Below are positions 9,944-63,966 of a stretch of 64,000 nt of DNA, one piece after another. The stretch is from a virus: positions 8,035-72,034 of IMG/VR virus record IMGVR_UViG_3300035180_002210; one strand, given 5' to 3'. The notes beneath the pieces were generated by a model. It worked only from the letters and a program-made list of their open reading frames with translations. It ran no database searches and was not told the origin of the DNA. The translations under genes and the position numbers were made by a program. Position 1 is the first letter of the stretch; each line of letters starts with the position of its first letter.

Positions 9944-10516
9944 ATGCCACCCCGTAAAGCGCCGGAATCTCCCGAGCAAGTTGCAGCATTCGAAGCCTTC
10001 TTCAAAATGGGTAATACCCGGAGCATTGCCAAATTGTCCCGCTTGCTGAAAAAAAACAAAAATACGCTGCAGAAGTGGTATCAGAAATTCAAGTGGGAGG
10101 ACAGAGCAGAGCGCCGGAGCAGGAAAATTGCGAAGGAGATAGAGAAAAAGACCGATAAGGACCTGATTAAGCAGCGTACCAGCTATTTATCTGAGATTGG
10201 ATTTTACCGAGACGCATTGAAGGACTTGCTTGATACCGTGATCAAAAAGGATCCAAAGACCGGGAAACCAAAGATCATGATTATACCCGAGAGCGTTAAG
10301 GACGTAGGTATTATCATAAAGGCTTATGAGATTCTCACCCGGCTCGAAATGGACGTGTTGAAAGAGGACAAGGACCAAAATAAGGATGAGGGTGTTCACC
10401 TTACGTTCGTTCAGCAGATAACCGTCAACGGCAAAACAGTTGAAGAGGAAGTAAAATTGGAAAGCGCGCCGGTTGTTGATGAGATTGAGGAAGCGACTGT
10501 AGTGAATGAATCTTAA
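9944..10516 (+). CDS. terS: Terminase small subunit
   Basis: N-terminal HTH (RSIAKLSRLL...TLQKWYQKFKWEDR); overlaps the start of terL. Confidence 0.8.
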   Translation: MPPRKAPESPEQVAAFEAFFKMGNTRSIAKLSRLLKKNKNTLQKWYQKFKWEDRAERRSRKIAKEIEKKTDKDLIKQRTSYLSEIGFYRDALKDLLDTVIKKDPKTGKPKIMIIPESVKDVGIIIKAYEILTRLEMDVLKEDKDQNKDEGVHLTFVQQITVNGKTVEEEVKLESAPVVDEIEEATVVNES

Positions 10517-14501: not shown

Positions 14502-16316
14502 ATGAACATCAGTCTTGCTGACGATGAAAATGATAAACCAGAAATTCTCACGGACAATGATATTATTGAACAGGTCAACAATAACGCGCAATTCCAAAAG
14601 GATCTACGTGTTTTAGACCAATCCAGTGCGATAAACTTTGAATTAGCAAACGAGGTACTTGCCTTGCTGCAGGACAGCGAAGGCCTCATGTTCGATCAGT
14701 CTGAAGGAGAGCGGTTTATTAATTGGGAAACAGAGCCCATTCCCTACCAGGTATTACGCAGGGCCGGAGCTTCAGAGCCAGCCGAACTTATTAAGAGCCA
14801 CCGAACTTTCGATTTTATTACATGGGGCAGAATACCTCCAAGAGAGGGCGCGAGGGGTTGTAGGTTAAAATTCCGGAATCCGGATTATCAGCCGACCAGG
14901 GAAGAAAGTGCCATGCTTCGCCAGTGGGAAATGAAGATATTCGAACAGTTCTTTTTTCCCCCGAATGAGTATTACGCCAATTTCGGAAAGTTCATAAGCG
15001 CAGCGTACCGGGATTGGTTTGATCTGGATGATATTACGACTGAATTTAGGATGGATGGTTTTGGCCAGCCGGTAGCGGTCCACTTGCAGGATCCCATAAT
15101 AATGAAGCCGATTGTGAAGCAGAGGAAATACTCAGCAGCGGGATTATACTCAGACGTTGAGGATATCCTGAACGATTATGAGAAGCTTTTAGACACGAAG
15201 GAATTTAAGGAAGCGACCAGCCGGGACAGGGAAGAAGCCGACTATCTGCTATTGTACAATAACAAGCGCTTTGCAGCCCTCACCAGGGAAAGAGTACGTA
15301 AGTTCCACTTCTTCACCCGTAGCGATTTTCGACACGCACAGCGGGGCTATAGCGTTGTGGAGAAGGGAATCCGTACACTCACGAACATCATCAACGCGCT
15401 AACATGGAATGCCAGCAATTTCAACAGCCGCCAATTTACCAGCATGGTAGCATTTACCGGCGGAGGCGTTAACACCGTCGCGTTAGAAAAGCTGAAAAAG
15501 ATACTCTACGCCAACATGAGCGGAGCCAGCAACGCCCAGAAATTCCCGATGATCAGCTTAACCGGGGAAAAGACGGACGCCAAAGTTTTGAATCTTCGCC
15601 AGAACTCCAAGGACTTTGAATTCCACCAAGGCACTACTTTACTCTTCTCAATTTGGTGTAAATACTCCGGGACGGACCCGAACGAGCTTGCATTAGCTTC
15701 CTACAAGGACGCGGTAGGGAAACCGGGATTATTCAATGAATCCGCCGACGGCCTTGTTAAGGAGAGCAAAGATTCAGGAGCCAGAACCTTCCTTACGCAC
15801 CTTGCAGATTCAATGAATGTGCCTAACAGGGACGGGCTGAACGTATTCCAGCTTATGACTCAGATGGATGTTAAGATGGAGTTCACCGGCTTCGAAATAG
15901 AGGACGCAAAGGTAAAATACGAACTCCGTGAAAAAGACTTAGAAACCGTAAAGAGCGTAAACGATATTTTGGCCGAGCAGGACAAGGAACGTCAGGTTTT
16001 AATGTTGGGAGATAATAACATATTCGATATTCCCGGGTTCCATAACTCATCGGTTTATCAAACCGCGTTATTCCTTGCTCAGCAGAAGGCTCAGAAAGAC
16101 GCCGCCCAGCAGCAACCGGGAGGAATGCCGGGCATGCCAGGACAGCAGGCACCGCAGGACCCCGCAGCGGAAGCCCAGCAGCAGGGTATTCAATTAACTG
16201 ATAAAGACCAAGCTTTGTTAAAGCAGGTTCAACAAAAACAAGGCGGCAATTCAATGGACAACGATTTGCAGGCCGAACTACAACAAAACGGCGGACAGCC
16301 GGAGGAGCAGGAATGA
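14502..16316 (+). CDS. Portal protein (SPO1/Twort-like) with Gln/Pro/Gly-rich tail
   Basis: GYSVVE...NASNF, KDFEF...DPNEL, ESKDSGARTFLTHLADSMN pattern; between terminase and MuF. Confidence 0.85.
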   Translation: MNISLADDENDKPEILTDNDIIEQVNNNAQFQKDLRVLDQSSAINFELANEVLALLQDSEGLMFDQSEGERFINWETEPIPYQVLRRAGASEPAELIKSHRTFDFITWGRIPPREGARGCRLKFRNPDYQPTREESAMLRQWEMKIFEQFFFPPNEYYANFGKFISAAYRDWFDLDDITTEFRMDGFGQPVAVHLQDPIIMKPIVKQRKYSAAGLYSDVEDILNDYEKLLDTKEFKEATSRDREEADYLLLYNNKRFAALTRERVRKFHFFTRSDFRHAQRGYSVVEKGIRTLTNIINALTWNASNFNSRQFTSMVAFTGGGVNTVALEKLKKILYANMSGASNAQKFPMISLTGEKTDAKVLNLRQNSKDFEFHQGTTLLFSIWCKYSGTDPNELALASYKDAVGKPGLFNESADGLVKESKDSGARTFLTHLADSMNVPNRDGLNVFQLMTQMDVKMEFTGFEIEDAKVKYELREKDLETVKSVNDILAEQDKERQVLMLGDNNIFDIPGFHNSSVYQTALFLAQQKAQKDAAQQQPGGMPGMPGQQAPQDPAAEAQQQGIQLTDKDQALLKQVQQKQGGNSMDNDLQAELQQNGGQPEEQE

Positions 16317-16564: not shown

Positions 16565-17610
16565 TACTTACTATAGATTCGAAGATTCACCACCTTAAAG
16601 AGCTTGATTTCATTGAGCGGGAACTTTACGGCCTTTTTAGCCCGGAGGAGTTCTATACCGATTTACGGAAGTTTCTGCAGCAGAATCCGGACATCGACCT
16701 ACGCAATAAGGGCTGGTTGAATGAATTCGAGGTCAGGGCCATTGATGAATATGTAAAGAATTATTTCTTCTCGAGGATCCCCGAAGCAAAGACATGGTAT
16801 TTACGCGCGTATATAGTAGGCCGGTTGACGGCTGAAAGCGACCTTATGGGAACGGTACTCAGTTTGGCGCCTTTAGCAACAATGCCATTATTTGTGCAGA
16901 CAGCAGCAAAGGAATTCGGGCTATCCCTACATGAAGCCAAAATGCTGGAAGGCGCGGTCAGTACGGCAGGAATGCACATAACCAACACTACCCAGGGGAC
17001 GATTCAGCAGATTCAGACCGCGATATCCGATGCTTTGATCAGGCGGGAAGGCATTCAGGGAATAGAGCGAAGATTAAATTCCATGCTGAATCTTGACATA
17101 GGCGATTTGAACCGGGACTGGAAAAGGGTTGCGATAACCGAAACGAATATGCTGTTTAACGACGGATATATCTCTTCTATGCTTGACGGGGACTATGTAA
17201 TAGGAGTGAGCATGCCGGACGCTTGCGATTCTTGTTTGAACGACATTAACAATAAAATTTACCAGGTGACAGCCGCGCCGCCGCCGGACTATACCGAGTT
17301 AACCGGAGAAGCCAAGAAACAGGCCGAATTTGATTGGGAAACCAAAGTTTGGGCAGGAAAGAACAATATAGGCCGGAGTGCTTCCAAGCGGAAACGTTTG
17401 GATAAACAGGCTGGTAACGCCGAGACTAATTTACGGCACAAGCATCATCACGAAATGAGCATGCCCGCTTGCCCGTATCATCCACACTGCCGCTGCCGAT
17501 GGATTCACTTTAACCCGAAATTCCAATGGATTGACAAAGGCGGTAATTTGCGCTTTGCAGTTGAGGACCCGGACGCGCATGATGAATGGTATAAGGAGAA
17601 TATAGGGTGA
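16561..17610 (+). CDS. MuF / SPP1 gp7-like head morphogenesis protein
   Basis: RDWKRVAITE, DACDSC, PYHPHCRCRW; directly after portal. Confidence 0.85.
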   Translation: MILTIDSKIHHLKELDFIERELYGLFSPEEFYTDLRKFLQQNPDIDLRNKGWLNEFEVRAIDEYVKNYFFSRIPEAKTWYLRAYIVGRLTAESDLMGTVLSLAPLATMPLFVQTAAKEFGLSLHEAKMLEGAVSTAGMHITNTTQGTIQQIQTAISDALIRREGIQGIERRLNSMLNLDIGDLNRDWKRVAITETNMLFNDGYISSMLDGDYVIGVSMPDACDSCLNDINNKIYQVTAAPPPDYTELTGEAKKQAEFDWETKVWAGKNNIGRSASKRKRLDKQAGNAETNLRHKHHHEMSMPACPYHPHCRCRWIHFNPKFQWIDKGGNLRFAVEDPDAHDEWYKENIG

Positions 17611-17849
17611 ACGTAGATACGGTCCCGATACTTGCAACCATTATTCTTATTGCGACAGCAGCCACGTTTATACTTGGAATAGGCGCCTATGTTATTCACG
17701 GCAGGAAAACGAAGCTGCCATTCACCCACTATGAGAAAGACATTCTGGAAAAGAAAATCCAGAACATTCTTTATACCGGCAATAATAAATACCGGACCGA
17801 AGAGCTTATAAAATTAATCGGCGAAGAAGTCAGAAAAGCAAAGAAATGA
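17607..17849 (+). CDS. Small single-TM protein
   Basis: AAGGAG RBS, GTGA/ATGA coupling, hydrophobic N-terminus. Confidence 0.6.
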   Translation: MNVDTVPILATIILIATAATFILGIGAYVIHGRKTKLPFTHYEKDILEKKIQNILYTGNNKYRTEELIKLIGEEVRKAKK

Positions 17850-20800
17850 AATTCGTAGTTAAATATCCGGACTATGAAGGCGGCTTCATTTACAAAGCCG
17901 TTGAAGGGTATAATGTTGTTACCAGGGACAATGACCTACATATCATTGACTCCCGGCCCATAAATATGCTCAGGAAGGGATTAGACACCCACCGGGGTAA
18001 GATTTTACGCTATGACGATAGTACGGTAGAGGTTTTGACAGATCAGGGCGTAAGGACAGCCGACAGAGAATTATTTAACCGAGTTCTGATTCATAAGTCT
18101 ATTGCCACCCAGGAACGGCAGGCAGCGGACGAAATTTGGCAGCGAGGCGGCCTGATTAAATCAGTTCGTAATATGATGACGGTAAAGCCCCCAAAGGTAA
18201 AGGACAATACTGTTAAACCGCCATCATCGGGCGGCCTGGCATGGAATGCGAAGGGCGGGCAGAAACCCGATCATAAATACATCGAGCGCAGGCCATCACC
18301 CACAAGGCCGGATGAATGGGTTTATTTATACCAGCTTCCTAATGGTGAGAAGAAATGGCATGATGAGAGCGGCCAGGAAATAAGCGAACAGGACGCAAAC
18401 TCCGCAGCGCAGAACGAGCCGTCAGAAGGCAATTTAACCGGGTATAAGGAAGGTTCGTTCGTTAAGGTAAACAGCAGAACCGCCAGAGTGAGCGGCGTAG
18501 CTGATAATGTAATTTCGGTTCAGTATGATGACGGCAGTGAGGAAATACTTTCTTCCTTCCAGTTGAATCCGAAGTTGCAGAAAGTTGGAGCAAACTATTT
18601 TGATCCGCAGTCACAACAGAATTATGCAGTTGAAACGATAGGGGACAATGTATTTTTAGGCAGGAGCCAGAGCGGAGAACTCAGGGCTTTTTTGAAACGG
18701 AAGATTTTCAAGCTCAGTGACGAGCAGATACACCCTAAAACAAAGTCACGGCTGGACCCGAACCACTACACCCACGACAGCGTTTACAAAACTTATGCTT
18801 CTCATTCCCAGGCGCACGGCTATGATGAAATGAGCGACGATGGTTTGAACTATGCAAAAACCACACCGGTTGCAGGCGGACAGTGGACTATAAACCGCGA
18901 ATATGATCCGGCTACAAAGGAATTTACCGTGAGTGTAAACGGGAAAAAGGATTTCAAAATTGACTATGAGGGCAAGAACCTTGAAGTTATAGACGCGACG
19001 GACACGGACATTATTGCCAAGGACGAAACCGGCGGGATCTGGAATGTTGATAAACGCCTGTACGGCGATTATTTACGGAAACAGGGGTTGAAGATCCCCG
19101 CAGCGGGTGACAATTCAGGGTTGAGCGAAACAGACCAGATATTGAAACACGTTACGGACACCGGCAGCCAGGGAGATAAAGCAATTTCAAACGCCACCGG
19201 CATTCCGTTAAACCGGGTGAAAAAATACCTTGCAGACCTATTGATCGACGGGAAGCTCCGGCACCGGAACGGGGAGTATTCGACGAAAGAGAAACCGAAA
19301 GGACGATGGGTAGCTGATCAGAAGGCGCCAATCGTCAGCGCAGAGGAGCGGGCCAAGGGTGAGCAGGAGCGGTTGTCCAGGATTAACGATAAGAATGTTG
19401 CCAAAAATTCAGATGAGTATAAGACCGGCACTTCTTTATTGGAGAAGGAAGGGTTTAATCTTAACCCGAATAATGAATTTTACGCATCGAAGCGGGTACG
19501 CGCGAACGGCTTAGATTTTGACATCGAGGCCAAGTATAACATGCAAACCGGATTGTGGGAAACCCAAGTTTCTAACGGCCATTACAAGGAACTGCAAATA
19601 GGCAGCAATCCGGATGAAAAATTCAAGATAGCCGATATCACCGGTGACACCGTCAGGTACTATGACCATAACGGAAAAATCAATTCAGTTGATTTGAAAG
19701 AGCTTGAAGCGATAAACGGCAGAAATGTATTTGAGCCTACCAAGGCGCAGAATGCCAGCCAGAATATTGCTATGGGTGATCAGACGGAGATTGTATATGC
19801 CAATGGTGAAAAGCACAAGGCAAACTACGCGGTAGTTGAGCTTGACGATATTACCGCCAGCCACGACGAGCGGACATTCCTTCCAAACAAGAACTATCCG
19901 CAGATGGACGGCCAGAGCACGAACGACCGGGATTATACCAAGAATCTGGACGATCAGCGCATGGTTCAAAAGGTTGAACAGAACTGGGATAACCGGACTA
20001 TCAACAACAGCCAGCAGGCGGACCAACATATTATTATTTCACCGGAAAACTTTGTTGTTTCCGGGAATAATAGGACGATGAGTGCGAAGTTAGCCAGAGA
20101 GAGTAACCCGAAGGCTTGGGAAGCGTTCAAAGAAAAGATGATAGCCGACGCCAGTTATTACGGGCTGGATCCGGAAGCCATAAAAGGGATGAAGCACCCG
20201 TTTTTTGTGAAGATTGACGCCGATACGCCGAAGGATGAGAACGGGAAATACGTGTACCGGAAATCGGAGCTTGCGAAATTCAATGCCGATGATAAGAAGT
20301 CCAAGACCGAAGAAGAAGAGGCCATGACCTACGGGGACGCGATTCAGGGCCGCCCGGAGATCATGGAGGTACTTGCAGACGCCATGAAGGATAAGGAAAC
20401 ACTTAGCGATATTTTGAACAGCAAAGCGGTTGATACGCAGAAGGCGTTCAGGGATGCCCTATTCCAATCCGGGGTAATGCCGCAGCAGGCAGCGAAAAAG
20501 TATTTTAATCCGGACGGCAGCTTAACGGATAACGGTAAAATTCTCGTTCGCAGCGTACTCAAAGGGACATTCCTCAGCCCGGACACGTATGAACTTTCCA
20601 CGTCAGAAGGTATGAAAACCTTCGGTGACGCCATCATTGATAATGTTGGAGCGAACTCTATAAACGCCAGCCTGCACCCTGAATGGAGCCTGCAGAACTA
20701 CATTAATGATTCAATACGACTTGAAGGGAAATATCAGTACAGCGGGGACTACAAGAAGAGCGGCAGCCCGTTTGAGCAGATGTTACGCATGCGGAATATG

Positions 20801-22231
20801 TTTGATGCACCGCACGACCGCCGGACCGTAGCTTTGAATCTGCTTGCTAAGAAGGGGAAGGAAGTTTACGGGAAAATTCTGAAAGATTATAACCAGACGG
20901 CCAGCACCGAGCAGACCAACAACATGGATAGCATGTTTGGTGAGAACATTACACCCGAAAACCTGTTTGAATCCGCGGTGATCGACGGGGAGTATAAGGG
21001 TAAACCGATATTTACACCGGAGGACCGGAAACTGCTGGATGAATTCAAATTTGAAACCCAGCCGAGCAAAGGCGGGAAATGGCAGAAACCGAAAGATACG
21101 TCAGCGGTTGATAAGGCGTTCAATGAAGCGACCGGGCAGCAGGAGGAAACGCAGCAGGTAGAGAAGTCGATTGATACCAGTCATAACGCACTTCTCCCGT
21201 CAAAGAAGAATCCGCGGGTGAGCCGGTGGCAGAGGATTGAATCAGCAAGTGCAGAATATCAAATTGGTGATTTTGGACCTATCTATCATCAGTTCAAGAA
21301 GAGATCAAAAGAAGCCATTCAGTTCCTTGTTGAAAAGAAGGACGGAGAGGCAATAGGCGCATTATATCATCCAGCCATAGGCGATATTGATTTGGTTTGG
21401 GGTAAAGAAGGGACTGGAAATAATGATGGATACGGGCTTGCGAAAATTGTTAAATACCATCCGGAAGTAGTTGAAAATCTTCAGGGAATATTGGAATCTA
21501 TGCCAATTAAGAGTAAAGGTAAAAATAGAATTCGATTAGAAGATAACAACCATGAAGCGGCTGTGAGTTTAGAATGGTATGGTAAGGCGAAGACCTGGTT
21601 GTTAACCGAGTACCAAAAACAAAAAGCCGCCCGAAGTATGAACGTGGGCGGCGAATCTCAGTTGAGACCAGATGAAACGACTACTTCATCTGTAAATCCA
21701 GTAAGCAATATAGTGAATGCAGGTGATGAAAGTCAAGAGATTAACAAAGGGATGAACGCAGTAGATTTCGCGCTGAAATATCACAAAGACCAGAAATATA
21801 ACGGTCAGCCGTATGTAGAAGCGCATTTGCAGCCGGTATTTGAAATGAGTAAAACACTTTGGACAGCCAGCGACAGGAAATTAGACTTTGAAACCTTGGG
21901 GAAGGCGGCCTTCCTTCACGATGTAATGGAGGACACCGATGCGACCTATGATCAGGTGAAAGAGCTTTTCGGACAGGACGCCGCGGATGCCTGCCAGCTG
22001 CTTGATACTACTAATAAGACCAAGGACGAGTATTACGCGGGAATAGCTACTTCTCCGTTAGCCAAGTTAATAAAGGCGGCAGACCGGCTTGTAAATCTGA
22101 AATCGCTTGCAGCTCACCCGGACGTTGACTGCGCAGCCTATCTTAAAAATAAATACCGGAATGATCTTGCATACTATGAGAAGTACGACATTTACCCGGA
22201 CCTGATTAAACAGGCAGTAGACGAATTATAA
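17846..22231 (+). CDS. Polyvalent protein 1: ddrB-like ParB domain + PBECR-type (barnase/EndoU/colicin E5-D/RelE fold) nuclease + HD/Mesh1-like (p)ppGpp-hydrolase domain
   Basis: About 19815-20300 YAVVELDDITASH...NDRDY...VVSGNNRTM; about 21250-21615 IGDIDLVWGKEG...GYGLAKIVKYH...WLLTEY; 21752-22231 ALKYHKDQ...PYVEAH...AAFLHDVMEDT...LIKAADRLVNL. Confidence 0.85.
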   Translation: MKFVVKYPDYEGGFIYKAVEGYNVVTRDNDLHIIDSRPINMLRKGLDTHRGKILRYDDSTVEVLTDQGVRTADRELFNRVLIHKSIATQERQAADEIWQRGGLIKSVRNMMTVKPPKVKDNTVKPPSSGGLAWNAKGGQKPDHKYIERRPSPTRPDEWVYLYQLPNGEKKWHDESGQEISEQDANSAAQNEPSEGNLTGYKEGSFVKVNSRTARVSGVADNVISVQYDDGSEEILSSFQLNPKLQKVGANYFDPQSQQNYAVETIGDNVFLGRSQSGELRAFLKRKIFKLSDEQIHPKTKSRLDPNHYTHDSVYKTYASHSQAHGYDEMSDDGLNYAKTTPVAGGQWTINREYDPATKEFTVSVNGKKDFKIDYEGKNLEVIDATDTDIIAKDETGGIWNVDKRLYGDYLRKQGLKIPAAGDNSGLSETDQILKHVTDTGSQGDKAISNATGIPLNRVKKYLADLLIDGKLRHRNGEYSTKEKPKGRWVADQKAPIVSAEERAKGEQERLSRINDKNVAKNSDEYKTGTSLLEKEGFNLNPNNEFYASKRVRANGLDFDIEAKYNMQTGLWETQVSNGHYKELQIGSNPDEKFKIADITGDTVRYYDHNGKINSVDLKELEAINGRNVFEPTKAQNASQNIAMGDQTEIVYANGEKHKANYAVVELDDITASHDERTFLPNKNYPQMDGQSTNDRDYTKNLDDQRMVQKVEQNWDNRTINNSQQADQHIIISPENFVVSGNNRTMSAKLARESNPKAWEAFKEKMIADASYYGLDPEAIKGMKHPFFVKIDADTPKDENGKYVYRKSELAKFNADDKKSKTEEEEAMTYGDAIQGRPEIMEVLADAMKDKETLSDILNSKAVDTQKAFRDALFQSGVMPQQAAKKYFNPDGSLTDNGKILVRSVLKGTFLSPDTYELSTSEGMKTFGDAIIDNVGANSINASLHPEWSLQNYINDSIRLEGKYQYSGDYKKSGSPFEQMLRMRNMFDAPHDRRTVALNLLAKKGKEVYGKILKDYNQTASTEQTNNMDSMFGENITPENLFESAVIDGEYKGKPIFTPEDRKLLDEFKFETQPSKGGKWQKPKDTSAVDKAFNEATGQQEETQQVEKSIDTSHNALLPSKKNPRVSRWQRIESASAEYQIGDFGPIYHQFKKRSKEAIQFLVEKKDGEAIGALYHPAIGDIDLVWGKEGTGNNDGYGLAKIVKYHPEVVENLQGILESMPIKSKGKNRIRLEDNNHEAAVSLEWYGKAKTWLLTEYQKQKAARSMNVGGESQLRPDETTTSSVNPVSNIVNAGDESQEINKGMNAVDFALKYHKDQKYNGQPYVEAHLQPVFEMSKTLWTASDRKLDFETLGKAAFLHDVMEDTDATYDQVKELFGQDAADACQLLDTTNKTKDEYYAGIATSPLAKLIKAADRLVNLKSLAAHPDVDCAAYLKNKYRNDLAYYEKYDIYPDLIKQAVDEL
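21615..21700 (-). ncRNA. Candidate antisense small RNA nested in polyvalent protein 1, just after the PBECR nuclease domain
   Basis: Minus-strand hairpins CAGATGAA/TTCATCTG, TCTC/GAGA and GCCGCCC/GGGCGGC followed by TTTTTGTTTTT; promoter directly upstream. Confidence 0.6.
21707..21736 (-). promoter_or_regulatory. Antisense sigma70-type promoter
   Basis: TTGACT (21736-21731), 18 nt, TATATT (21712-21707). Confidence 0.65.
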
Positions 22232-22265
22232 CAAATAACAGCATATATCAGTTAACAGGCGAAGC

Positions 22266-25200
22266 ATGGATAATCTTGATGATAAATTGAAGGCGGACAA
22301 AAACTTTAAGCTACAAGGACGTAAAAGCTTTCAGGGCCTTGATATTGCGGTAGAGAACCGGCCCGGCAGCATACGCAGCGGGCTTGACAATGACGGGGAG
22401 GAATGGGAAACCCGTATGTTTTATGAATATGGATATATCCGCGGCACGCTTGGAGTTGACGGCGAGCAGGTAGATTGCTATGTGGGTAAAAACGCCGACA
22501 GCCAAAAGGTTTTTATCATCCATCAGAAGAATCCGGAAACCGGCAAGTATGATGAGGATAAAGTTATGCTTGGGTTCACAGATAAAACACACGCCAGGGA
22601 CGCCTATTTGGCACACTACGACTCGCATAAGTTCCTTGGTGAAATAACTGAAATGACCATCGACGAATTAAAAGAGAAATTGAAAACCAGGAAGGGTAAA
22701 ATGATTAAGAGCGTATCAATTTTCGGTAAAAAAGTATTGCAGGCGTTCGAGGATATTTTTAAGTCAGTGAAAGTCCGGGATCTATTGACTATGAATATGT
22801 TTGACGCCGCGAATCCGGATGATGAGGTGACAGAGGGTAAAACCGTAGTAAAAAACGGAAAGACTTATGAATACCGCCGGAGCCAGAAAAACCCGGGGGT
22901 ACGCAGATTGTTTTCCACCGAGCAGGACGAACCGGCGCAGCCGGATTTATTCCAGACCGCTCCAAAGATAGCAGGGCCTACACCGAAGCAGGCAGCGGCC
23001 TTGGGTGAGCATGAGCCAGTAGACCAGGCAGCCATGAAGGAGGCCACAAAGAGAACTAAATTATTTGGCCAGCAAGTAAGTTTATTCGATCAGCAGGAAG
23101 AGCCGAAAACTGCAAAAAGCCTTGTAAAAATAACTAATAAAATAACCGGTGAATCTGCAAAACCGGATGAAAAAATAACTGACAAGATACCGGAAGAGGA
23201 ACACCCCGAGACAATAGGTGATGATCTGTTCTCCCAGCCAGCACCCAGCCCGAAAAAGAAAGAGGATGAAGAAAACCCGACAATGGCGTTTGGAGCGGAG
23301 GCTATTGATAAGAACGTCGTGAAGAAACGGCAGGAAATAAATGCCAAAGCGCTTGAACTTCTTAAAACAAAGAAACCTGAAGAAATGACAATGGATGATA
23401 AAATAATCCTTGCTCAGTATTCAGGCCGCGGCGGATTGGGCGGAAACACTTTTGACGATATCAGTTTGAACGAATATTACACCAGGACGCAGGAAGCACA
23501 GTTTATTTGGGATATGTTAGGGAAGTTTGGCTTCAAAGGCGGACCGGTACTGGAACCGAGTTCCGGAGTTGGCGTATTTATCCATACCGCGCCAAAGGAC
23601 ACCATAGTTGACGGCGTAGAGCTTGATAAGACGAGCAGCGCTATTGCTTCCATACTTCACGGGCAATTCCACAACATAACGAACCAGAGTTTTGAGCAAC
23701 ATATAAAAGGAAGCGACGGCGGAAAATATGCAGCGGTAGTAGGAAACCCGCCATTCGGGCCGCGCGGAATGACCTCAGTTGACGATCCGGAAAAGATAGA
23801 CTTGAACACCTGCCAGGAATATTTCCTTGACCGGGGTATTGACGAACTTGAAGAAGGCGGGTTATTGGGAATGATTGTTCCCACGGGTATCATGGATAAC
23901 CAGGTGAATGAATGGCGGCTTTCTCTCAATAAAAAGGCAGACTTTTTAGGCGCAATCAGGATGCCTACCGGAGTATTTAAGCATGCAAAGGCTCAGGTAA
24001 CAACGGATATTGTATTTTTCCGTAAAAGGGATGATGCAGTACGGGACTATCTTGAAAACGTTCCTAAAGAGGATTTGAAGGGCTTATACGACGCTCAAAT
24101 TCTTGACGCGGAGTTTATTGCCGGTAACTATTTTGAGAAGAACCCGCAGTACGCCCTTGGAACAAAGAAGCGCGGGCAATGGGAAGGACAGAGCATTTGG
24201 ACCGGTGACATAAGCCGGGGTGATCTGGATGAAGTTGGAGCATTACTGAAATTTACGGATCGGGACGCGGAATATCAGAAGCTTGGAATCCTCATTGATC
24301 GACTGCCGGCAAAAGAGCTTCATGTTGGAGATACCAAAACATTCAACGGGCGCACCTACCGATTGAACGAAAACCACCGATGGGAAAGGGTTGATGAAGC
24401 GGAGCTGGGTAAAGAATCCCTGCCAAAAGAGCTGCAGGAGAAGCTTGGAATAAAAACAAAAGCAGAATTTCAGGCCTTGCAGCGGGACGTAGCGAAAAAG
24501 CTTGAACTCACCCGCGAGCAGTTAAATCTTCTGGATGATAAGGTTTTGTCATCGGAGCTGGAAGCGTACAATGACAAAAACGACTTCCGGGCGGAAATGC
24601 TGAAGCACGCTACTTTGTTAGGGCTGGCAGTTAAAAAGTTTCAGATTGATTTACGAAGCGGGGCCATTGAAGGAAGCGACGCACAAAAAGAAGCAGCTAA
24701 GCTTGCAGGCTTGCTCAATCAGTTCCATGATAAATACGGACACCCGATTAATGATTTGAAACTGAAACGGTACTTAGGGCGCACAACCGGAAACCCTATT
24801 CTTTATTTGGCCGGGTCCTTTAACGAGGACGGCGGGTTAAGCGCAATTTTTGACGATCCACTGGCTTACTACGCAGTATACAGGACAAACTACGAAGTGG
24901 GTGAGCTTGACAGCAAGAGCATACCGAAAATTTTACAATATCTGGTTGATAACGGGCTTGACACTTCTTTCGAGTCTATACAGTCCATGTACAGCGGCGG
25001 CACCATCGAAGAAAATGAGCTTATCCGTGATGAGAATGTTTTTATTGACGAGAACGGCGGGTATAGCCCAACGCAGGAGGTTTGTGTAGGTACGGTTTAT
25101 AATAAACTGGATGCCTGGACAAAAATGCGAAAAGACATCAGCGAAAAATTGTCAACTCCGGCAGGGGTAAACGAACCCGAGGGCGAAGGTAAAACGCTTA

Positions 25201-28200
25201 GCGACGATGAAAAGGAAACCTTGCTACTGAAGGATAAAAAGCTTGAAGATCAGATTTTTGAGATGAAACGCAGAGCCGGATCTACGGAGTTAACGAATCT
25301 TCCGGTATCAATGAAGGACGCAGGAGAATTTTTTGATATTAAGCATTTGAACGAATATTTAAGCGGGAAACTGGGAGCTAATTTTGTTGGCAACATATCC
25401 AGGAATAAAGAAGGCTTTTTTGGTATGGAGGACCAAGGGCTACAGAACACCTATTTGATGTATGCCACAAAAGGCGCAGAAGGCCAGGACAAATATGAAA
25501 AAGATCAACGGAACCGGTCTATGGAGGCGTATTTCGGTAAGGAAAATCTGAATCCGCCGATGTTTCTCTTCCTGAATATGCTTAACGGCTTATCGGTTCG
25601 CGGCGCAAATAGTCTTGAATTCAAAAAACAGTACGAAGATATTGCGAACAGCTTTGTCAAATACCTTGATTCAATTGATGAGGCACCGGCCATAACCGAT
25701 ATTTATAACCGGGCTTTTAACGACTTCATACAGAAAAAGTATGATGATTCAGTTATCGAAGGCCTGAATCACTTTGCTTACGATAAAGTTGTTGCCACCG
25801 ATAAGGACGGCAAAGAATTTACAGTAAGGGATAAAATAGGCTCCCATGTTTGGGAAGTTGTCCGGCGCATGTATGACCAAGGGAAGGGTATAATTGCTCA
25901 CGGCGTCGGTTTAGGAAAGACTGTCACTGCAATTGCGCTGATAGCCTTATCGAAGGCAACGGGCCGATGCAAGAAGCCGGTAGTGATCATGCCGAAGTCA
26001 TTGCAGCTGAATTGGGTAAACGAAATTAACAAGTGGACCGAAGGGAGTAAGATACTTCCGGTTGGATTGAAGCAGGTAAACGGAGTCTGGAAGGATTGCA
26101 ACGCGCAGGAAACTATTTTGCAGCTTCAGCAGATTCAGAACGAGGACTGGGACTATATTCTGATCACCAGGGATGACTTTAAACGGATAGATTTCAACCC
26201 CGAGACGAAAAAGCGAATGATTAAAGAGATAGCGGATAAATACTATCCGGAAGGTGATGAAATGACCAAACTCGATAAGCAGAAGCGCGAAGTGGCTATT
26301 CAGCAATTGGCAAAGACCATGCAGAACGATACCGCGTTCGAAAACGTGTTTCTGGAAAATCTTGGGCTGGATATGATGGTGAGGGACGAGGCCCATGATT
26401 GCAAGAACTTACTGCAGGCAGTTCAGACGGATATTAAAGGCATAGGCAATGCCGCCGCGGCGATCAGCATGCACAACTTTTTTGCATCGAAGATCATACG
26501 CGGAGCCAATAACGAAAAGGGCGTATTCTCTATGACGGCAACACCGATTTCTAACAGTCCGCTTGAAGTGTTTAATATGATGCTGCCGGTTATGGAAAAG
26601 GAGCTCGAGGCGATCAATATTAAGACAATGGATGATTTTGTTGAGAAATTTGCAGATCACGGAATGCGGATGACTGCCGACGCCGATGGTAAGGTAGGAG
26701 AAAAAGACATGTTCTCCGGCTGGAAAGTGCCTGACGCGCTAAGGAAGATTTTCTACCGGTTCACCGACTTTAAAACAAAGGATGATGTTGAAAGTGTACG
26801 GTCAAGCATAAAGTTCCCGAAGGAACGGCCTTCCAATTTATACAGTACGTTAAATGCAGGGCAGGAACAATTAAGCGATCATTGTTCGGCAAGGCTGAAT
26901 TGTTTGAAATACCGTGAGCAGGATCCCAATACTAAAAAGTGGAACCTGAAAGACAGCGTAATGACCAAGGACATTGAGGAAGAAGTTCTAACCGAGCAGG
27001 AGAAGCAGGACGCGGTTCACTACTTCTATAATCAGTTCATACCCACGTATGAGAAATTGAACCGGGGCCGCAGTCCGGAGGATCCGCCGATTGATGACTG
27101 TTTCTTCTCAATTCAGAGCGACCTTATTAAGATCAGCAGCGATTTGGACTGGTACGCCGGGAACCGCAGCTATTATTCCAAGGATATTGATGAATCGTTT
27201 GTTGAGAAATACAATGATTTAGATAAGTATAAACAGTTGACCGAGCATGCTGCAGGGCTTTATAATTCGGGCAAGAAGCAGCTCATTTTCGCTATAAATA
27301 CTACGCTTCACCCGATCATACTTGATAATCTGATAAAGGCCGGGATAAAGCCTTCTGAAATTGCTATTGTAAACGGAAAGACGGCAAAGAACGCACAGGC
27401 CCGCTCCAAGTTCAGTGAAGGGTTCAACAGCGGCAAGTATAAAGTAATTATCGGTAACTACGCCACAATGGGCGAAGGTTTGAATTTTAACAAAGAATGC
27501 GCTGCCATCACCCACGTACAACCGGCCTGGAACTATGCACAGATCGAGCAGGGAAATGGCCGGGGAATTCGGCAGGGGAATGACCTGGACTTTGTTGATA
27601 CGTATTACATGCTCACCAAGGGCAGCATCGACACCTTCATGACTGATAAGATCATGAAGAAGGGCGGCATGGTTTCTAAATTCCTCAAAGGAGAGCTGAG
27701 CGAGTGGAACGAAGATGTTCAGCTTGACGGTGACGAAATGCTGGCCGCACGGGCGAAGAACCCGGAACGGGCAAGGAAAATTCTGGAAAGAAGGAACGCC
27801 GCCATTCAGGAGGCTAAGAAGGAGAAAAACCGGGTAATTAATTTCCAAAAGTTTGATCGGTTGTTTGAAGTAAAAGCTAAGATGAGTAAGTTTGAGGACC
27901 AAAACAGCAAACAGTATAAAATGCTGGAACAGGAACAAAATGAGATCATGGAGCGGTTGAACAACGATCCGGAATTCAAGCTGAAAGACCACCTTACTTC
28001 AGATCAGAAGCCTATTGTTATCAGGAACCATGACGTAGCAATTCCTGTAGGAAGTGTGGTGAAATATTCGAACCACCCGGACGAAGCAAATGAATTTGCG
28101 GTATTGACCGACTATACCCCGAGCACGGGACGGGTTCTTTTGACCACGTACAGTTCTGATACAAGGGAGATTAAGTCTATGCCGGTTGAATCGTTCATCA

Positions 28201-29009
28201 GCCAGTACGGATGGACCGTAAAGAAAACGGACCTTGACGTAGCGGGAATGTTCAAAACTTTGGTTGATAAGGAGAATCTTATTGATATGGGCATGATTAA
28301 CGCCATGCCGATAGACGCTTTGAACGCGAACCGGAAACAGTTATTGCAGAATTTACGGGATGTGGACTACGCACCCCCATTGATGTATAAAAATATGAAT
28401 GGTGAAATTAAATTTGATGTAGCCGATGATGTATTTCAGACAATAGAGGAGGACGGCGGGAAGGTCCTATTCCCGCAGGAATATCCGGATTGGGTTAAGG
28501 TTGCCAGCCAGATTATTAAGAGTAAACGGGATGACTCGAAAGCCCGGGGATTTTGCCGAGCGATTTACGGCGATAATTGGGAAAAGGAACTTCCGAAAGC
28601 GGTTAAGAAGTTGACGAATCCGAAAGCGGAAACAAACACCACACCGCAGGATAAGTTTGAAATACCGGACTGGAAAGAAGCCAAGTTTAATGTTTTAGTC
28701 AAGCAACTTGAAAACGAAGGCTATATTTCACCGTATGACGCTCATAGGGCAGTTAAGGAGAAATCGGACCGCTTGCCATCGGAATATCTCATGAACCGGA
28801 TATTGCAGGGCGGATTGAGTAAGAAATACATTGCGGATTATGAAAACGCGGAAAACAAGGAAGAATTTCTGCAGCGCAATAACGACCGCATGGAGTCTAT
28901 AATTGCGCTCTTTGACCACGGTGATGACGAACTGAAAAAATGGCACGACAAATTGAAGCTTGACAAATGGTACGGAGATAATAAACATTTAAGCGAGAAA
29001 ACAGCATGA
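22266..29009 (+). CDS. Polyvalent protein 2 (DarB-like): inorganic pyrophosphatase + N6-adenine methyltransferase + SNF2 helicase
   Basis: N-terminal ENRPGSIRSG...YGYIRGT.GVDGEQVDCYVG...DEDKVMLGF; MTase VLEPSSGVG, VVGNPPF; SNF2 AHGVGLGKT, RDEAH, MTATPISNSPLE, EGLN, EQGNGRGIRQGN. Confidence 0.9.
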   Translation: MDNLDDKLKADKNFKLQGRKSFQGLDIAVENRPGSIRSGLDNDGEEWETRMFYEYGYIRGTLGVDGEQVDCYVGKNADSQKVFIIHQKNPETGKYDEDKVMLGFTDKTHARDAYLAHYDSHKFLGEITEMTIDELKEKLKTRKGKMIKSVSIFGKKVLQAFEDIFKSVKVRDLLTMNMFDAANPDDEVTEGKTVVKNGKTYEYRRSQKNPGVRRLFSTEQDEPAQPDLFQTAPKIAGPTPKQAAALGEHEPVDQAAMKEATKRTKLFGQQVSLFDQQEEPKTAKSLVKITNKITGESAKPDEKITDKIPEEEHPETIGDDLFSQPAPSPKKKEDEENPTMAFGAEAIDKNVVKKRQEINAKALELLKTKKPEEMTMDDKIILAQYSGRGGLGGNTFDDISLNEYYTRTQEAQFIWDMLGKFGFKGGPVLEPSSGVGVFIHTAPKDTIVDGVELDKTSSAIASILHGQFHNITNQSFEQHIKGSDGGKYAAVVGNPPFGPRGMTSVDDPEKIDLNTCQEYFLDRGIDELEEGGLLGMIVPTGIMDNQVNEWRLSLNKKADFLGAIRMPTGVFKHAKAQVTTDIVFFRKRDDAVRDYLENVPKEDLKGLYDAQILDAEFIAGNYFEKNPQYALGTKKRGQWEGQSIWTGDISRGDLDEVGALLKFTDRDAEYQKLGILIDRLPAKELHVGDTKTFNGRTYRLNENHRWERVDEAELGKESLPKELQEKLGIKTKAEFQALQRDVAKKLELTREQLNLLDDKVLSSELEAYNDKNDFRAEMLKHATLLGLAVKKFQIDLRSGAIEGSDAQKEAAKLAGLLNQFHDKYGHPINDLKLKRYLGRTTGNPILYLAGSFNEDGGLSAIFDDPLAYYAVYRTNYEVGELDSKSIPKILQYLVDNGLDTSFESIQSMYSGGTIEENELIRDENVFIDENGGYSPTQEVCVGTVYNKLDAWTKMRKDISEKLSTPAGVNEPEGEGKTLSDDEKETLLLKDKKLEDQIFEMKRRAGSTELTNLPVSMKDAGEFFDIKHLNEYLSGKLGANFVGNISRNKEGFFGMEDQGLQNTYLMYATKGAEGQDKYEKDQRNRSMEAYFGKENLNPPMFLFLNMLNGLSVRGANSLEFKKQYEDIANSFVKYLDSIDEAPAITDIYNRAFNDFIQKKYDDSVIEGLNHFAYDKVVATDKDGKEFTVRDKIGSHVWEVVRRMYDQGKGIIAHGVGLGKTVTAIALIALSKATGRCKKPVVIMPKSLQLNWVNEINKWTEGSKILPVGLKQVNGVWKDCNAQETILQLQQIQNEDWDYILITRDDFKRIDFNPETKKRMIKEIADKYYPEGDEMTKLDKQKREVAIQQLAKTMQNDTAFENVFLENLGLDMMVRDEAHDCKNLLQAVQTDIKGIGNAAAAISMHNFFASKIIRGANNEKGVFSMTATPISNSPLEVFNMMLPVMEKELEAINIKTMDDFVEKFADHGMRMTADADGKVGEKDMFSGWKVPDALRKIFYRFTDFKTKDDVESVRSSIKFPKERPSNLYSTLNAGQEQLSDHCSARLNCLKYREQDPNTKKWNLKDSVMTKDIEEEVLTEQEKQDAVHYFYNQFIPTYEKLNRGRSPEDPPIDDCFFSIQSDLIKISSDLDWYAGNRSYYSKDIDESFVEKYNDLDKYKQLTEHAAGLYNSGKKQLIFAINTTLHPIILDNLIKAGIKPSEIAIVNGKTAKNAQARSKFSEGFNSGKYKVIIGNYATMGEGLNFNKECAAITHVQPAWNYAQIEQGNGRGIRQGNDLDFVDTYYMLTKGSIDTFMTDKIMKKGGMVSKFLKGELSEWNEDVQLDGDEMLAARAKNPERARKILERRNAAIQEAKKEKNRVINFQKFDRLFEVKAKMSKFEDQNSKQYKMLEQEQNEIMERLNNDPEFKLKDHLTSDQKPIVIRNHDVAIPVGSVVKYSNHPDEANEFAVLTDYTPSTGRVLLTTYSSDTREIKSMPVESFISQYGWTVKKTDLDVAGMFKTLVDKENLIDMGMINAMPIDALNANRKQLLQNLRDVDYAPPLMYKNMNGEIKFDVADDVFQTIEEDGGKVLFPQEYPDWVKVASQIIKSKRDDSKARGFCRAIYGDNWEKELPKAVKKLTNPKAETNTTPQDKFEIPDWKEAKFNVLVKQLENEGYISPYDAHRAVKEKSDRLPSEYLMNRILQGGLSKKYIADYENAENKEEFLQRNNDRMESIIALFDHGDDELKKWHDKLKLDKWYGDNKHLSEKTA

Positions 29010-37318: not shown

Positions 37319-38002
37319 ATGCCACTACGCATAACGGATCCCAATTTTACCGATATTATGACCATCTACGGGTTGGACGCATGGTATTATCATGCGCGGC
37401 TTTGCAGTTGTGTAGGCGCTAATAACGGAGTTCCGGATTCAAGTGATGATTGTGAAATGGGATTCAGGTACAGCGCACCGGAGAAGGTCCGCCTGCAGAG
37501 AACGCAGACTACCAAGAAAACGCTTAACACCCCATCCGGAGTAATACCGGACGGGGCCATCACCCTGACAGTTCCTAAATACTGGAAGAAGAAATTACAG
37601 AATGCCTGGGTGACTGCTGCTCATGGTGACGTTTATTCATTGATTGGTAAATCACAGGTAGCAAGGGATATTTTGAAACGCGGGGTACGCGACCGGATAT
37701 TCGCGTTTGATATACAGAAAATCCTATCGGTAGCGATAAAAGATACGTTTTATATACAAGGGACTGATTTTACCCTGCAAGACCGGACAATAGTCTGGGC
37801 GGAGGATAAGGGCCCGGAGGACGGAGCCTTTTATTCGGTTGAGTTTTTATGCAACCAGCAGTACCGGCAATATGACACGGACGCCTTCGACCGCGGTGGT
37901 GACGGCGATGATTTGCCAAAGAGAATTAATGCAGTGATCCGGCAGTACGTAAATCCGGATGATAACCCGCTTGACGCGGTAGACACCAAGGAGAATATCT
38001 AA
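37319..38002 (+). CDS. Head-closure/neck protein
   Basis: LCSC...C..GFRY, GAITLT, YIQGTDF...IVW...GP..G..YSV. Confidence 0.65.
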   Translation: MPLRITDPNFTDIMTIYGLDAWYYHARLCSCVGANNGVPDSSDDCEMGFRYSAPEKVRLQRTQTTKKTLNTPSGVIPDGAITLTVPKYWKKKLQNAWVTAAHGDVYSLIGKSQVARDILKRGVRDRIFAFDIQKILSVAIKDTFYIQGTDFTLQDRTIVWAEDKGPEDGAFYSVEFLCNQQYRQYDTDAFDRGGDGDDLPKRINAVIRQYVNPDDNPLDAVDTKENI

Positions 38003-61880: not shown

Positions 61881-61905
61881 TTAACTTTTTATTCTTCCAC
61901 TTTAC

Positions 61906-61935
61906 ATAGGGCATAGATTTATGCCCTATTTTTTT
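61906..61935 (+). terminator. Intrinsic terminator of the tail operon
   Basis: ATAGGGCATA-gatt-TATGCCCTAT followed by a T run. Confidence 0.85.
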
Positions 61936-61953
61936 GCTGCATAAACAAAAAAA

Positions 61954-62006
61954 GGGTAATATTAGTTAAAATAGTTCTTGACAACTACAATATATTGTAG
62001 TATATT
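61954..62006 (+). promoter_or_regulatory. Sigma70-type promoter with an 18-bp palindromic operator in the spacer
   Basis: TTGACA (61978), 17 nt, TATATT (62001); perfect palindrome ACTACAATATATTGTAGT at 61984-62001. Confidence 0.8.
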
Positions 62007-62039
62007 GAAAGTGAGATTTGAAACAAGAAAGGACAGAAG

Positions 62040-62318
62040 ATGAAAGCAGAAGAATTGTTTGAGCAGACGGGACCAATCACATTGAACGTTTTTTCACTTT
62101 GCGACGCCCCCGATAGATTTATTTTGAATCCAGACAGCAGGCGGTTACGGTCAACAACTATTCACCCCTCAATAAGTGATGCGGTAAAATTCTCTCTGAG
62201 TGAAGAAGGAACGCCGGACAATGACTGGGACTTGATTGAATGCCGGAAGCAACTGCCTGCGGAATATATTCATGTTGACACCGAAGGGAAGTTTTCCGGA
62301 TGGAGGCAACAGCAATGA
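62040..62318 (+). CDS. Moron hypothetical protein
   Basis: AAAGGA RBS after promoter. Confidence 0.65.
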   Translation: MKAEELFEQTGPITLNVFSLCDAPDRFILNPDSRRLRSTTIHPSISDAVKFSLSEEGTPDNDWDLIECRKQLPAEYIHVDTEGKFSGWRQQQ

Positions 62319-62662
62319 TCACCAATAAAAAGCCCGCGGCAAAACCGCGGGCCCGGTTCGAGACAAGAACGGATATAAAAATCACCGGAATAGAATACCT
62401 GGATAGCTACTTCTCAGACAGGGAGCGGCGTTTGTTCAACCCAACGTTATGGGGACAGTATGACAATGTGCCGACAAAGTCAGCAATGGACAAGATCCGG
62501 GATATAATCTGGAGTTTCCGGTTTAACCTGGAATGTGACGGCAAAAAGTTGATCACCGGCAACGAAGAAAGCTATTTCTGGATTGCTACCCCCGATGGAA
62601 TCCGGAGAATAATTATTAATTTTACGGAAGTAAAAAGAAGGGTTCAGATATGTACCTCCTGA
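62315..62662 (+). CDS. Hypothetical protein
   Basis: GGAGG RBS and ATGA coupling favour 62315. Confidence 0.6.
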   Translation: MITNKKPAAKPRARFETRTDIKITGIEYLDSYFSDRERRLFNPTLWGQYDNVPTKSAMDKIRDIIWSFRFNLECDGKKLITGNEESYFWIATPDGIRRIIINFTEVKRRVQICTS

Positions 62663-63925: not shown

Positions 63926-63930
63926 AAACG

Positions 63931-63966
63931 AATCCTGATCAGTACTGATCAGGATTTTTTGTTTTA
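63931..63966 (+). terminator. Host tRNA terminator beyond attR
   Basis: AATCCTGATCAG-TA-CTGATCAGGATT followed by T-rich tail. Confidence 0.85.

Follow-up and report, generated by a model that had tools for sequence, protein, structure and literature searches.

The locus described here raises the question of whether the coding region that links two domains of a giant phage protein also holds, on its opposite strand, a gene for a small structured RNA, and what such an RNA would do. The stretch of DNA analysed, referred to as the window, comprises 64,000 nucleotides (nt) at positions 8,035 to 72,034 of the 72-kb virus record IMGVR_UViG_3300035180_002210, and almost all of its genes lie on the plus strand. 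One of these, at 17846..22231 (+), was found from the list of open reading frames (ORFs) and their translations to encode a protein of 1461 amino acids (aa), and the element in question sits inside it. A first-pass annotation had proposed this element as a candidate RNA antitoxin, placed right after the nuclease domain of the protein. The comparisons presented here suggest that the predicted RNA gene is real and conserved (a probability of about 90% is given to this), that it travels with the PBECR1 domain cassette and is confined to it, and that the predicted antisense RNA probably serves as an inbuilt antidote to the predicted RNase or as its regulator.

Searches against Pfam recognised three domains only in the 1461-aa protein: ddrB-like ParB (aa 653-789), PBECR1 (aa 1172-1261) and HD phosphohydrolase (aa 1305-1417). 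The match to PBECR1 (PF18809) scored 36.3 bits against a curated cut-off of 27.6 (E-value 8.5e-9). In an eight-sequence alignment of the domain the H of KYHPE and the T of WLLT were invariant columns, and a conserved His and a C-terminal Thr position are named for PBECR1 in the account of the domain by Iyer et al. (2017). By the definition of that paper the protein belongs to the phage polyvalent proteins, which are predicted there to be packaged in the virion and injected. The motif WLLTEY occupies aa 1251-1256 (21596-21613), with the Pfam match running on to aa 1261.

Within the linker between PBECR1 and HD, as bounded by Pfam, a sigma-70-like promoter lies on the minus strand exactly where it had been placed, with a −35 box TTGACT at 21731..21736 (opposite plus-strand codons AGT CAA, S1296-Q1297) and, after an 18-nt spacer, a −10 box TATATT at 21707..21712 (opposite AAT ATA, N1288-I1289). 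With matches at 10/12 positions it was the second-best promoter-like site of the scanned 17-30 kb region, and a transcription start near 21700 is inferred. Three consecutive hairpins follow on the same strand (21692-21626). Hairpin A, at 21669..21692, has a 9-bp stem (21692-21684 with 21677-21669) and the loop GUAGUC; the middle hairpin, at 21655..21668, has 5 bp, GUCUC/GAGAU (21668-21664 with 21659-21655); and hairpin B, at 21626..21652, has the stem GCCGCCC/GGGCGGC (21652-21646 with 21632-21626) and a 13-nt loop over the S-M-N-V codons, with a free energy (dG) of −14.3. It is followed by the U-tract UUUUUGUUUUUG at 21614..21625 (−), which is antisense to the Q-K-Q-K codons straight after WLLTEY. 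The terminator does end where the nuclease domain ends, as the first-pass annotation had it.

Hairpin B and the U-tract form a predicted intrinsic terminator in the window, and with a 3' end at the U-tract the putative RNA would be of about 87 nt (21700-21614, minus strand). The minimum free energy of this transcript was −29.8 kcal/mol with a z-score of −3.90, none of 200 shuffled sequences folding as well; a 101-nt version gave a z-score of −3.33. The plus strand of the element folds nearly as well (−29.1 kcal/mol) because all stems in the window are Watson-Crick. No ORF was found to fit the putative transcript, which holds only AUG-AAG-UAG. The stretch is contained in four sequencing runs, all of them of DNA (sediment, microbial mat) with no RNA run listed, and the element is identical in the four, so that they offer no variants to use. 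Two other explanations for the site were tried and rejected. A repeated parS-like site is contradicted by the inverted repeat of hairpin A occurring once in the window, and a programmed frameshift at CAAAAAG followed by a hairpin lacks both a spacer and a canonical heptamer, with no ORF of 40 aa or more lying downstream in another plus frame.

The evidence from the window itself was evaluated by defining a promoter-terminator unit as a promoter with at least 10/12 matches followed, 40-200 nt on, by a hairpin with dG of −12 or lower and a T-tract (at least 6 T in 8). Exactly one such unit, this element, was found on both strands of the window. Dinucleotide shuffles gave 0.15 units expected per window, with at least one unit in 9/60, and synonymous recoding of all genes gave at least one unit in 18/157, one of the 18 null pairs being as densely folded. 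The window taken by itself is therefore modest evidence, as about 11-15% of randomised windows show such a pair and the element could be chance. No local enrichment was seen between 17 and 30 kb, where 18 promoter-like sites (18.4 expected) and 19 terminator-like sites (14.8 expected) were counted, and 70 of 3196 minus-strand windows of 100 nt equal or exceed the element in folding. The window reaches its highest 100-nt fold stability (−42 kcal/mol) elsewhere within coding regions, at 16081-16200, 37461-37620 and 59381-59480 on the minus strand. Local recoding of 49 codons reproduced the promoter in 0.6%, the terminator in 1.6% and the minus-strand energy in 3.6% of cases and all three in 0/1000, in a test made post hoc; codon usage across the element falls in the lowest 1.2% of 35-codon windows. 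Judged on the window-only evidence, before the family comparison, the balance tilted somewhat towards chance.

The promoter type is at least in keeping with the rest of the window. Intergenic DNA makes up 8% of the window and holds four of the nine plus-strand sigma-70-like sites with at least 10/12 matches, and clean terminators stand behind the major head gene and other genes. The host of this virus appears, from these signals, to use sigma-70-type promoters and intrinsic terminators. A Bacteroidota-type host was considered and rejected, as the motif TAnnTTTG is not enriched intergenically (2/26 plus-strand sites) while the sigma-70-like sites are (4/9).

The case for an RNA gene is carried by the other genomes in which PBECR1 occurs. 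In an alignment of 118 homologues, conservation was found to extend 25-40 aa past the Pfam boundary, with the consensus ...WLLTAFEKK..TTDT......DDTA...(S)(D/N)xI(V)..., and it is to this conserved tail of the nuclease module that the RNA is antisense. The first-pass annotation had stated that the RNA barely overlaps the nuclease and had taken the slight overlap as an argument against simple antisense silencing. The first statement does not stand once the tail is counted in, and the argument drawn from it is weak, since over the cassette tail RNA and mRNA are fully complementary and cis-antisense action stays a live rival.

An initial set of 14 PBECR1 loci (nine phage records together with metagenome loci or loci from metagenome-assembled genomes, MAGs) was examined at a position fixed beforehand, namely that of the window's −10 box within 12 nt on either side, with the numbering reference set 18 nt downstream of the WLLTxF end. 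An antisense sigma-70-like motif was present there with an empirical p of 0.05 or lower in 5/14 loci (Fisher 3.7e-4), and synonymous recoding of the 11 loci of this set with a continuing ORF gave a Fisher value of 4.2e-5. The window promoter, with its −10 box at +99 from WLLTxF, gave a probability of 0.005 that a recoded sequence scores at least as high as the observed one. The −10 box was also read as AAT ATA (Asn-Ile) in Pseudomonas phage Itty13, where the third-codon-position GC content (GC3) is 0.87 and ATA makes up 4% of Ile codons, and in Sinorhizobium phage PBC5 (GC3 0.65, ATA 6% of Ile codons). Two Campylobacterota loci place the box in another codon phase, A-AT TCT A.

The set was then enlarged with 159 further PBECR1 loci fetched with the eight-sequence domain alignment, which gave roughly 290 confirmed hits (113 in genomes and 175 in viral contigs). 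A WLLT motif could be recognised in 171 of all the loci, 165 of them usable, and when their tail DNA was clustered by single linkage at 80% identity 59 representatives remained, the window not being among them. Statistics on related sequences given here are redundancy-reduced with no correction for phylogeny, and taxa are named as in the MAG or genome records. A positional promoter (−10 box at +87 to +111 from WLLTxF) reached an empirical p of 0.05 or lower in 26/59 representatives, with 2.95 expected (Fisher 8e-17); the spacer was nearly always 17 and the −10 box mostly lay at +96 to +106. Under synonymous recoding the same level was reached in 18/59 (Fisher 3.5e-15), made up of 15/40 named non-Bacteroidota, 0/8 named Bacteroidota and 3/11 unnamed representatives. 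The significance under synonymous recoding indicates that the promoter is built by codon choice.

In the Bacteroidota a different motif was found at this place. TAnnTTTG followed by a pyrimidine occurred antisense at +102 to +118 in seven of the eight named Bacteroidota representatives, against a background chance of 0.009 per 37-nt window (binomial 4e-14), and was seen at the promoter place in 1/40 named non-Bacteroidota and 5/11 unnamed representatives. A wider Bacteroidota-type set of 16 loci was picked partly by eye, so that the named-only counts (7/8 and 1/40) are the reliable ones. TANNTTTGY is given as the −7 consensus of Bacteroides promoters in the account consulted (PMC12632263). The encoded residues vary at these loci (K-D-S, K-V-N, K-V-D, K-G-T) with the DNA motif kept. 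The predicted antisense promoter is conserved in position with its type matching the host phylum, and this switch of dialect is explained by a promoter for the host polymerase and not by a by-product of the reading frame. The window falls within the family position, a −10 or −7 box at +87 to +123 from WLLTxF, and the element was found with PBECR1 in records of Pseudomonadota, Campylobacterota, Bacteroidota, Spirochaetota, Acidobacteriota, Planctomycetota and Verrucomicrobiota. Agrobacterium and Rhizobium prophages and, within L122-L200, prophages of Parabacteroides or Prevotella are among the members. It should also be noted that the relative with the tail most like that of the window, WLLTEYKKAGRTMNVSG (viral contig L220), has an antisense box TATTTTTG at +91 after WLLTEY which fits both a sigma-70 −10 box, with TTGACT 17 nt upstream, and a Bacteroidota −7 box.

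The first-pass annotation had suggested covariation analysis of the DNA following PBECR domains in other phages, and two covarying hairpins were found there (46 sequences) beside the promoter (59 loci). For this purpose the minus-strand segments from +125 to −24 of the window and 45 of the 59 representatives were aligned with MAFFT; the other 14 (L112, L116, L117, L118, L120, L158, L173, L176, L179, L183, L185, L191, L195 and L199) were left out by eye as having divergent-looking tails. The RNAalifold consensus contained two hairpins with compensatory changes in 13/13 pairs, one pair for example occurring as CG in 21 sequences, UA in 17 and AU in 2. Paired cells amounted to 87.4% against 57.2% in shuffled alignments, and the covariation score was 0.819 against 0.266, with 0/500 shuffles as high for either value. 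Sliding the partner by 1-3 columns reduced pairing to 38-51% and the covariation score to 0.13-0.22. In helix 2, 90.3% of cells were paired across the family. There were 61 G.U cells against 13 A.C cells (ratio 0.82, against 0.60 shuffled), an excess which indicates that the minus strand is the folded one. By its alignment to the covariance model described below and by the family covariation, hairpin A is the predicted homologue of the first conserved hairpin of the family and hairpin B that of the second, the middle hairpin being in the same comparison specific to the window's lineage.

Conservation is also marked in the loops. The consensus of loop A, GAGCUGUGUCAU, is antisense to the D-T-A codons and that of loop B, AGUGUCUGUCCUCGUG, to T-D-T. 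In the 29 representatives with DT[AV] at loop A the codons were GAC in 29/29 (14.2 expected from the usage of each locus), ACA in 22/29 (5.6 expected) and GCT in 26/29 (6.1 expected), and this fixation spans GC3 values from 0.28 to 0.87. The loop nucleotides are, in these alignments, fixed at synonymous sites across phyla. GUC was present in loop A of 37/46 and loop B of 39/46 sequences, compared with 16% of control 13-mers. In the PBECR1 tails of loci L113 to L280 the peptide motif TDT...DTA coincides exactly with the two RNA loops; given this fixation of its codons at synonymous positions, selection at the RNA level may have produced the peptide motif itself as a by-product. The 13-nt loop of the window's terminator hairpin, at first sight atypical, is likewise shared by the family, whose loops have to accommodate the conserved codons. 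At the WLLTxF end a hairpin with a T-rich tract was found in 27/59 loci, against 21% of background 60-nt windows, so that about half of the family members, among them the window, have a canonical 3' end.

A covariance model, R1, was built from the 45 other PBECR1 loci with the window excluded. It matched the window at 21608..21710 on the minus strand over its full length (model positions 1-103 of 103) with 28.6 bits and an E-value of 3.5e-5 under a rough calibration. Both helices were paired, hairpin A with all six model pairs, no non-canonical pair was flagged, and the middle hairpin appeared as an insertion. As the match is partly one of homologous coding sequence, it shows membership and is not independent proof of the structure. 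When R1 was applied to 18 PBECR1 loci outside the model, seven were matched at an E-value of 0.001 or lower and three more at 0.06-0.24, all antisense and in the expected place, whereas 98 loci without PBECR1 (504 kb, both strands) gave none at an E-value of 1 or lower. One match of 29.6 bits lies at L070:2101-2195 (−), a 2.4-kb metagenome contig in which the PBECR1 frame stops five codons after WLLTAF; this is either an error that shifts the frame or a case in which the RNA was retained after translation of the tail was lost.

No established family was recovered by other searches. Rfam 15 gave on the window only a sub-threshold match to isrD (RF01388; 16.5 bits against a gathering threshold of 37, E-value 5.6), and no Rfam family was found for the element in ten other members. 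Full-text literature searches for PBECR1, polyvalent protein, MuF and antisense RNA returned no paper linking the domain with an antisense RNA, and the term 'antisense RNA' gave no hit in the searched text of Iyer et al. (2017). The predicted antisense small-RNA genes of PBECR1 tails are a new RNA family, absent from Rfam and from the literature searched, which is defined by the R1 model.

That the element belongs to the nuclease cassette and not to the gene as a whole was seen by comparison with an orthologue. The 1636-aa protein P0003, which is encoded on contig L110 from an Ignavibacteriales MAG, is orthologous to the product of the entire gene, with 74% identity by BLASTP over aa 1-1110 (825/1120) and 58% identity to the HD module of the window (108/186). 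Window aa 1133-1276 have no BLASTP counterpart in it. In Pfam it carries PBECR2 (aa 1159-1275), at a different slot from the window's PBECR1, and no PBECR1, from which it follows that PBECR1 with its tail (aa ~1133 to ~1300) is a swapped-in cassette. This cassette, the RNase-like domain plus the conserved tail, lies at 21242..21745 (+), its 3' boundary being approximate. A 36-aa segment, KSIDT...RWQR, at window aa 1097-1132 was re-found at aa 1407-1442 of P0003. Set against L110:10219-10908, window 21134-21241 and 21674-22231 thus show the PBECR1/PBECR2 exchange with this segment displaced relative to the nuclease cassette, and the pair is, at the level of sequence, a clean case of module shuffling within a single gene lineage. 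Ahead of the HD domain the linker DNA of the two could not be aligned, and no R1 match with an E-value below 0.9 was obtained on L110, the match described above being the only one in the window and L110 together. A structured small-RNA gene lying antisense behind the PBECR domain and belonging to it, as the first-pass annotation had it, is thus what the promoter, the covariation, the R1 matches and the absence from L110 point to.

The L110 locus has features of its own. Behind its PBECR2, in L110:9900-10160 (−), terminator-like sites with dG of −12 or lower at 10075 and 9948 are the sole minus-strand ones in 16.9 kb, and a promoter-terminator unit, TTGACA-17-TATCTT at 10052-10024 with 75 nt to the terminator, was matched in 2/400 shuffles of the 1.7-kb region. 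Convergent minus-strand genes start 8 nt past the gene and could equally account for these terminators. Cassettes of other PBECR types may come with unrelated antisense RNAs of their own. A third promoter-like site of L110 (9936-9908) has 13 nt in common with the −35 region of the window. An 'ESQ' linker homology between the two was rejected as not significant (13-nt identity with an E-value of 0.028, protein E-value of 16).

Beyond L110 few relatives were available. No close DNA relatives of the window were found in phage or plasmid collections, nor close phage relatives by scans with the major head and terminase proteins; most protein homologues match the PBECR1 part only, and a search with the N-terminal alignment retrieved the L110 contig only. 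No DNA locus was found for P0006, the protein with the most similar tail. PBECR1 gave one match only in 401 genomes of the phylum of L110, and no relatives of the L110 PBECR2 were found in viral contigs.

Several observations weigh against the reading that a conserved RNA gene devoted to PBECR1 is present. The sigma-70-like promoter is significant in roughly one third to half of the loci only, and a canonical terminator was found in only 27/59. Folding energy showed weak selection in a set of 11 distant phage loci, with Fisher values of 0.047 on the minus strand and 0.012 on the plus strand. The kinship of the sequences inflates the shuffle-based statistics, and the omission of 14 representatives was made by eye, six of which R1 later recovered at an E-value of 0.001 or lower. 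The loops of the window, GUAGUC and ACGUUCAUACUUC, deviate from the family consensus, with loop A retaining GUC and loop B having just GUU; UGU is present in neither. Loop conservation could also reflect a partner other than PBECR1.

The surroundings of the polyvalent gene are those of a head-morphogenesis module, as judged from PHROGs matches of the neighbours. Portal and minor-head genes lie upstream, and downstream are a 2247-aa ORF, the head protease and the major head protein. The 2247-aa ORF (22266-29009, plus strand), directly behind the polyvalent gene, is the second giant ORF of the window and may itself be a polyvalent or ejection protein. In a distant part of the window, the intergenic region 61881-62299 holds a plus-strand terminator at 61927 and then a strong sigma-70-like promoter, TTGACA-17-TATATT at 61978-62006; a strong minus-strand terminator (T-tract from 62331, dG −20.1) lies barely inside the next ORF, and a bidirectional terminator is found at 63932/63955 (window 63930-63960). 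The features at 61881-62331 and at 63932/63955 likely represent the limits of a transcription unit and the end of a minus-strand gene.

As regards function, there is good reason to expect that the predicted RNA gene controls the PBECR1 module by some route. It is suspected that the host RNA polymerase finds a host-type promoter on the antisense strand, about 100 nt after WLLTxF, and that the antisense RNA is made in the producer cell or lysogen as an antidote to the RNase. The two GUC-bearing loops would be recognised by the PBECR1 domain itself, as a pseudo-substrate or inhibitor, and the enzyme would do no harm before being packaged and injected free of the RNA; pairing with the complementary mRNA may act alongside inhibition of the protein. 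Inhibition of PBECR1 through RNA-protein contact, or a decoy effect, was the idea of the first-pass annotation, and it is taken as the likeliest mechanism at rather less than even odds. It fits the conservation of the loop sequence, the repetition of the motif in both loops and the need of the producer to tolerate a packaged RNase. The term 'immunity protein' is absent from the main text of Iyer et al. (2017) by a term search, which also fits an RNA antidote. A narrower version can be put forward only tentatively: an RNA 'immunity factor' whose loops (GUC, UGU), which resemble anticodons in being antisense to Asp and Thr codons, would occupy the PBECR1 active site in the producer as pseudo-substrates, with the peptide motif TDT...DTA as a by-product of the loop sequence.

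The stem-loop architecture of the element is typical of countertranscripts, and the same RNA could act in cis, in the manner of lambda OOP or of a type I system, its loops pairing with the mirror-image hairpins of the mRNA and the duplex being cut (by RNase III, for example) or translation being blocked. The RNase protein would then be silenced at low sense transcription, in early infection or lysogeny, and would escape once late transcription outruns the small RNA. Perfect complementarity to the mRNA is given by construction, the RNA gene has a host-type promoter of its own, the terminator in the window predicts a short stable RNA, and the polyvalent gene lies within a late virion module. There is also the precedent of OOP, described as suppressing CII activities (PMC5869508). 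Such pairing requires no particular loop sequence, yet the loops are fixed synonymously across phyla and share GUC, and the target lies 3.8 kb into a 4.4-kb gene, distant from the ribosome-binding site, so that cis-antisense control as the principal route is possible but rather unlikely. It should be noted that the RNA-protein and cis-antisense routes are not mutually exclusive.

The conservation of the loops irrespective of host phylum, and a host-matched promoter from which unmodified host polymerase could make the RNA on incoming DNA, would also suit a trans-acting phage small RNA. Its loops would target a universal host RNA or RNA-binding factor, for takeover or counter-defence, and its placement in the tail would serve only for co-mobilisation. 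A functional tie to PBECR1 accounts more readily for the strict linkage to one domain, no match having been obtained in the 504 kb of further phage or prophage loci, and an independent RNA of this kind is considered improbable. The remaining explanation dispenses with an RNA gene: the hairpins would act in the DNA or the sense mRNA, either marking the cassette border for recombination or pausing translation, with the promoter boxes as by-products, or the element of the window would be chance. The promoter-terminator pair is indeed not significant within the window alone, the stems there are all Watson-Crick with the plus strand at −29.1 kcal/mol, and the cassette border inferred by BLAST falls within the element. 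Against this stand the promoter motif, which changes with the host phylum at the same position, the excess of G.U over A.C that points to the minus strand, the R1 match at 3.5e-5 and the family-wide promoter and covariation statistics beyond chance; little weight is left for this explanation.

With an antisense RNA controlling PBECR1 as the preferred reading, the element would have consequences for how these proteins are seen. Polyvalent proteins are thought to be injected anti-host weapons, and a cassette-borne antisense RNA would supply the missing antidote or control for their RNase modules; its presence marks PBECR1 as probably toxic and active. If the RNA does act as an immunity factor, it would be the first RNA antidote lying antisense within the reading frame of its own toxin, forming with the toxin cassette one unit across phyla in which the type of promoter is swapped for each host. 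The DNA appears to code twice, under two selections, with amino acids varying where nucleotides are fixed, and the in-frame promoter seems to have been rewritten from the TTGACA/TATAAT type to TAnnTTTG where the cassette lives in Bacteroidota. For annotation it is a warning that opposite-strand genes can be hidden in the 'linkers' of giant phage proteins.

Among known systems, type III toxin-antitoxin systems (ToxIN, CptIN, TenpIN) are described as holding an endoribonuclease in check with a structured non-coding RNA that binds the protein, the antitoxins being tandem repeats upstream on the same strand which are processed by the toxin into a cyclic complex (PMC8860590, PMC13682666, in the parts consulted). 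The likeness, if the top-ranked mechanism is true, would be that of a structured RNA restraining an endoribonuclease toxin. Membership, to which the first-pass annotation had alluded, is contradicted on three points. Tandem Repeats Finder returned 0 rows for 17000-23000 at a minimum score of 30, and, unlike an antitoxin encoded upstream on the same strand with a terminator between, the element lies within the gene on its opposite strand, on the 3' side of the nuclease domain. The toxin is of a different family, Pfam having shown PBECR1, ddrB-ParB and HD only and none of ToxN/AbiQ, CptN or TenpN. Here there are thus no repeats, the RNA is antisense inside the coding sequence of the toxin itself, and the fold is the BECR-type fold of PBECR1.

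In colicins E5 and D the neutraliser is an immunity protein encoded beside the RNase, which protects the producer until delivery. Colicin E5 is described as recognising UQU in anticodon loops (PMC1635277). A neutraliser next to the RNase and family loops rich in UGU and GUC recall this arrangement, the proposed neutraliser here being an RNA and not a protein; a link through substrate mimicry to the UQU recognition of E5 is speculation.

In type I systems (hok/Sok) and plasmid countertranscripts a cis-encoded stem-loop antisense RNA pairs with the toxin mRNA. Small membrane peptides serve as toxins in type I, where the RNA usually lies over the translation start or the 3' end. The element shares with these a cis-encoded stem-loop antisense RNA complementary to the mRNA of the toxin gene. 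In the present case a single domain of a giant virion protein takes the part of the 'toxin' and the RNA overlaps the gene internally; the element is not a type I member because its target is a 1461-aa multidomain protein, not a small hydrophobic peptide.

The OOP RNA of lambda has its own promoter and intrinsic terminator and is a countertranscript antisense to the 3' end of cII. It is described as a short RNA that lowers the activity of the CII protein, which is harmful to the cell (PMC5869508). A promoter and terminator opposite a coding region and an RNA of less than 150 nt, here predicted by sequence, are common to both. The present element differs in lying in the domain linker of a 1461-aa virion protein, in moving with a domain cassette between genes and phyla, in a promoter type that tracks the host and in loops conserved at synonymous sites. 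As far as the predicted architecture goes, short phage countertranscripts such as OOP are the closest in design to the PBECR1-tail RNA.

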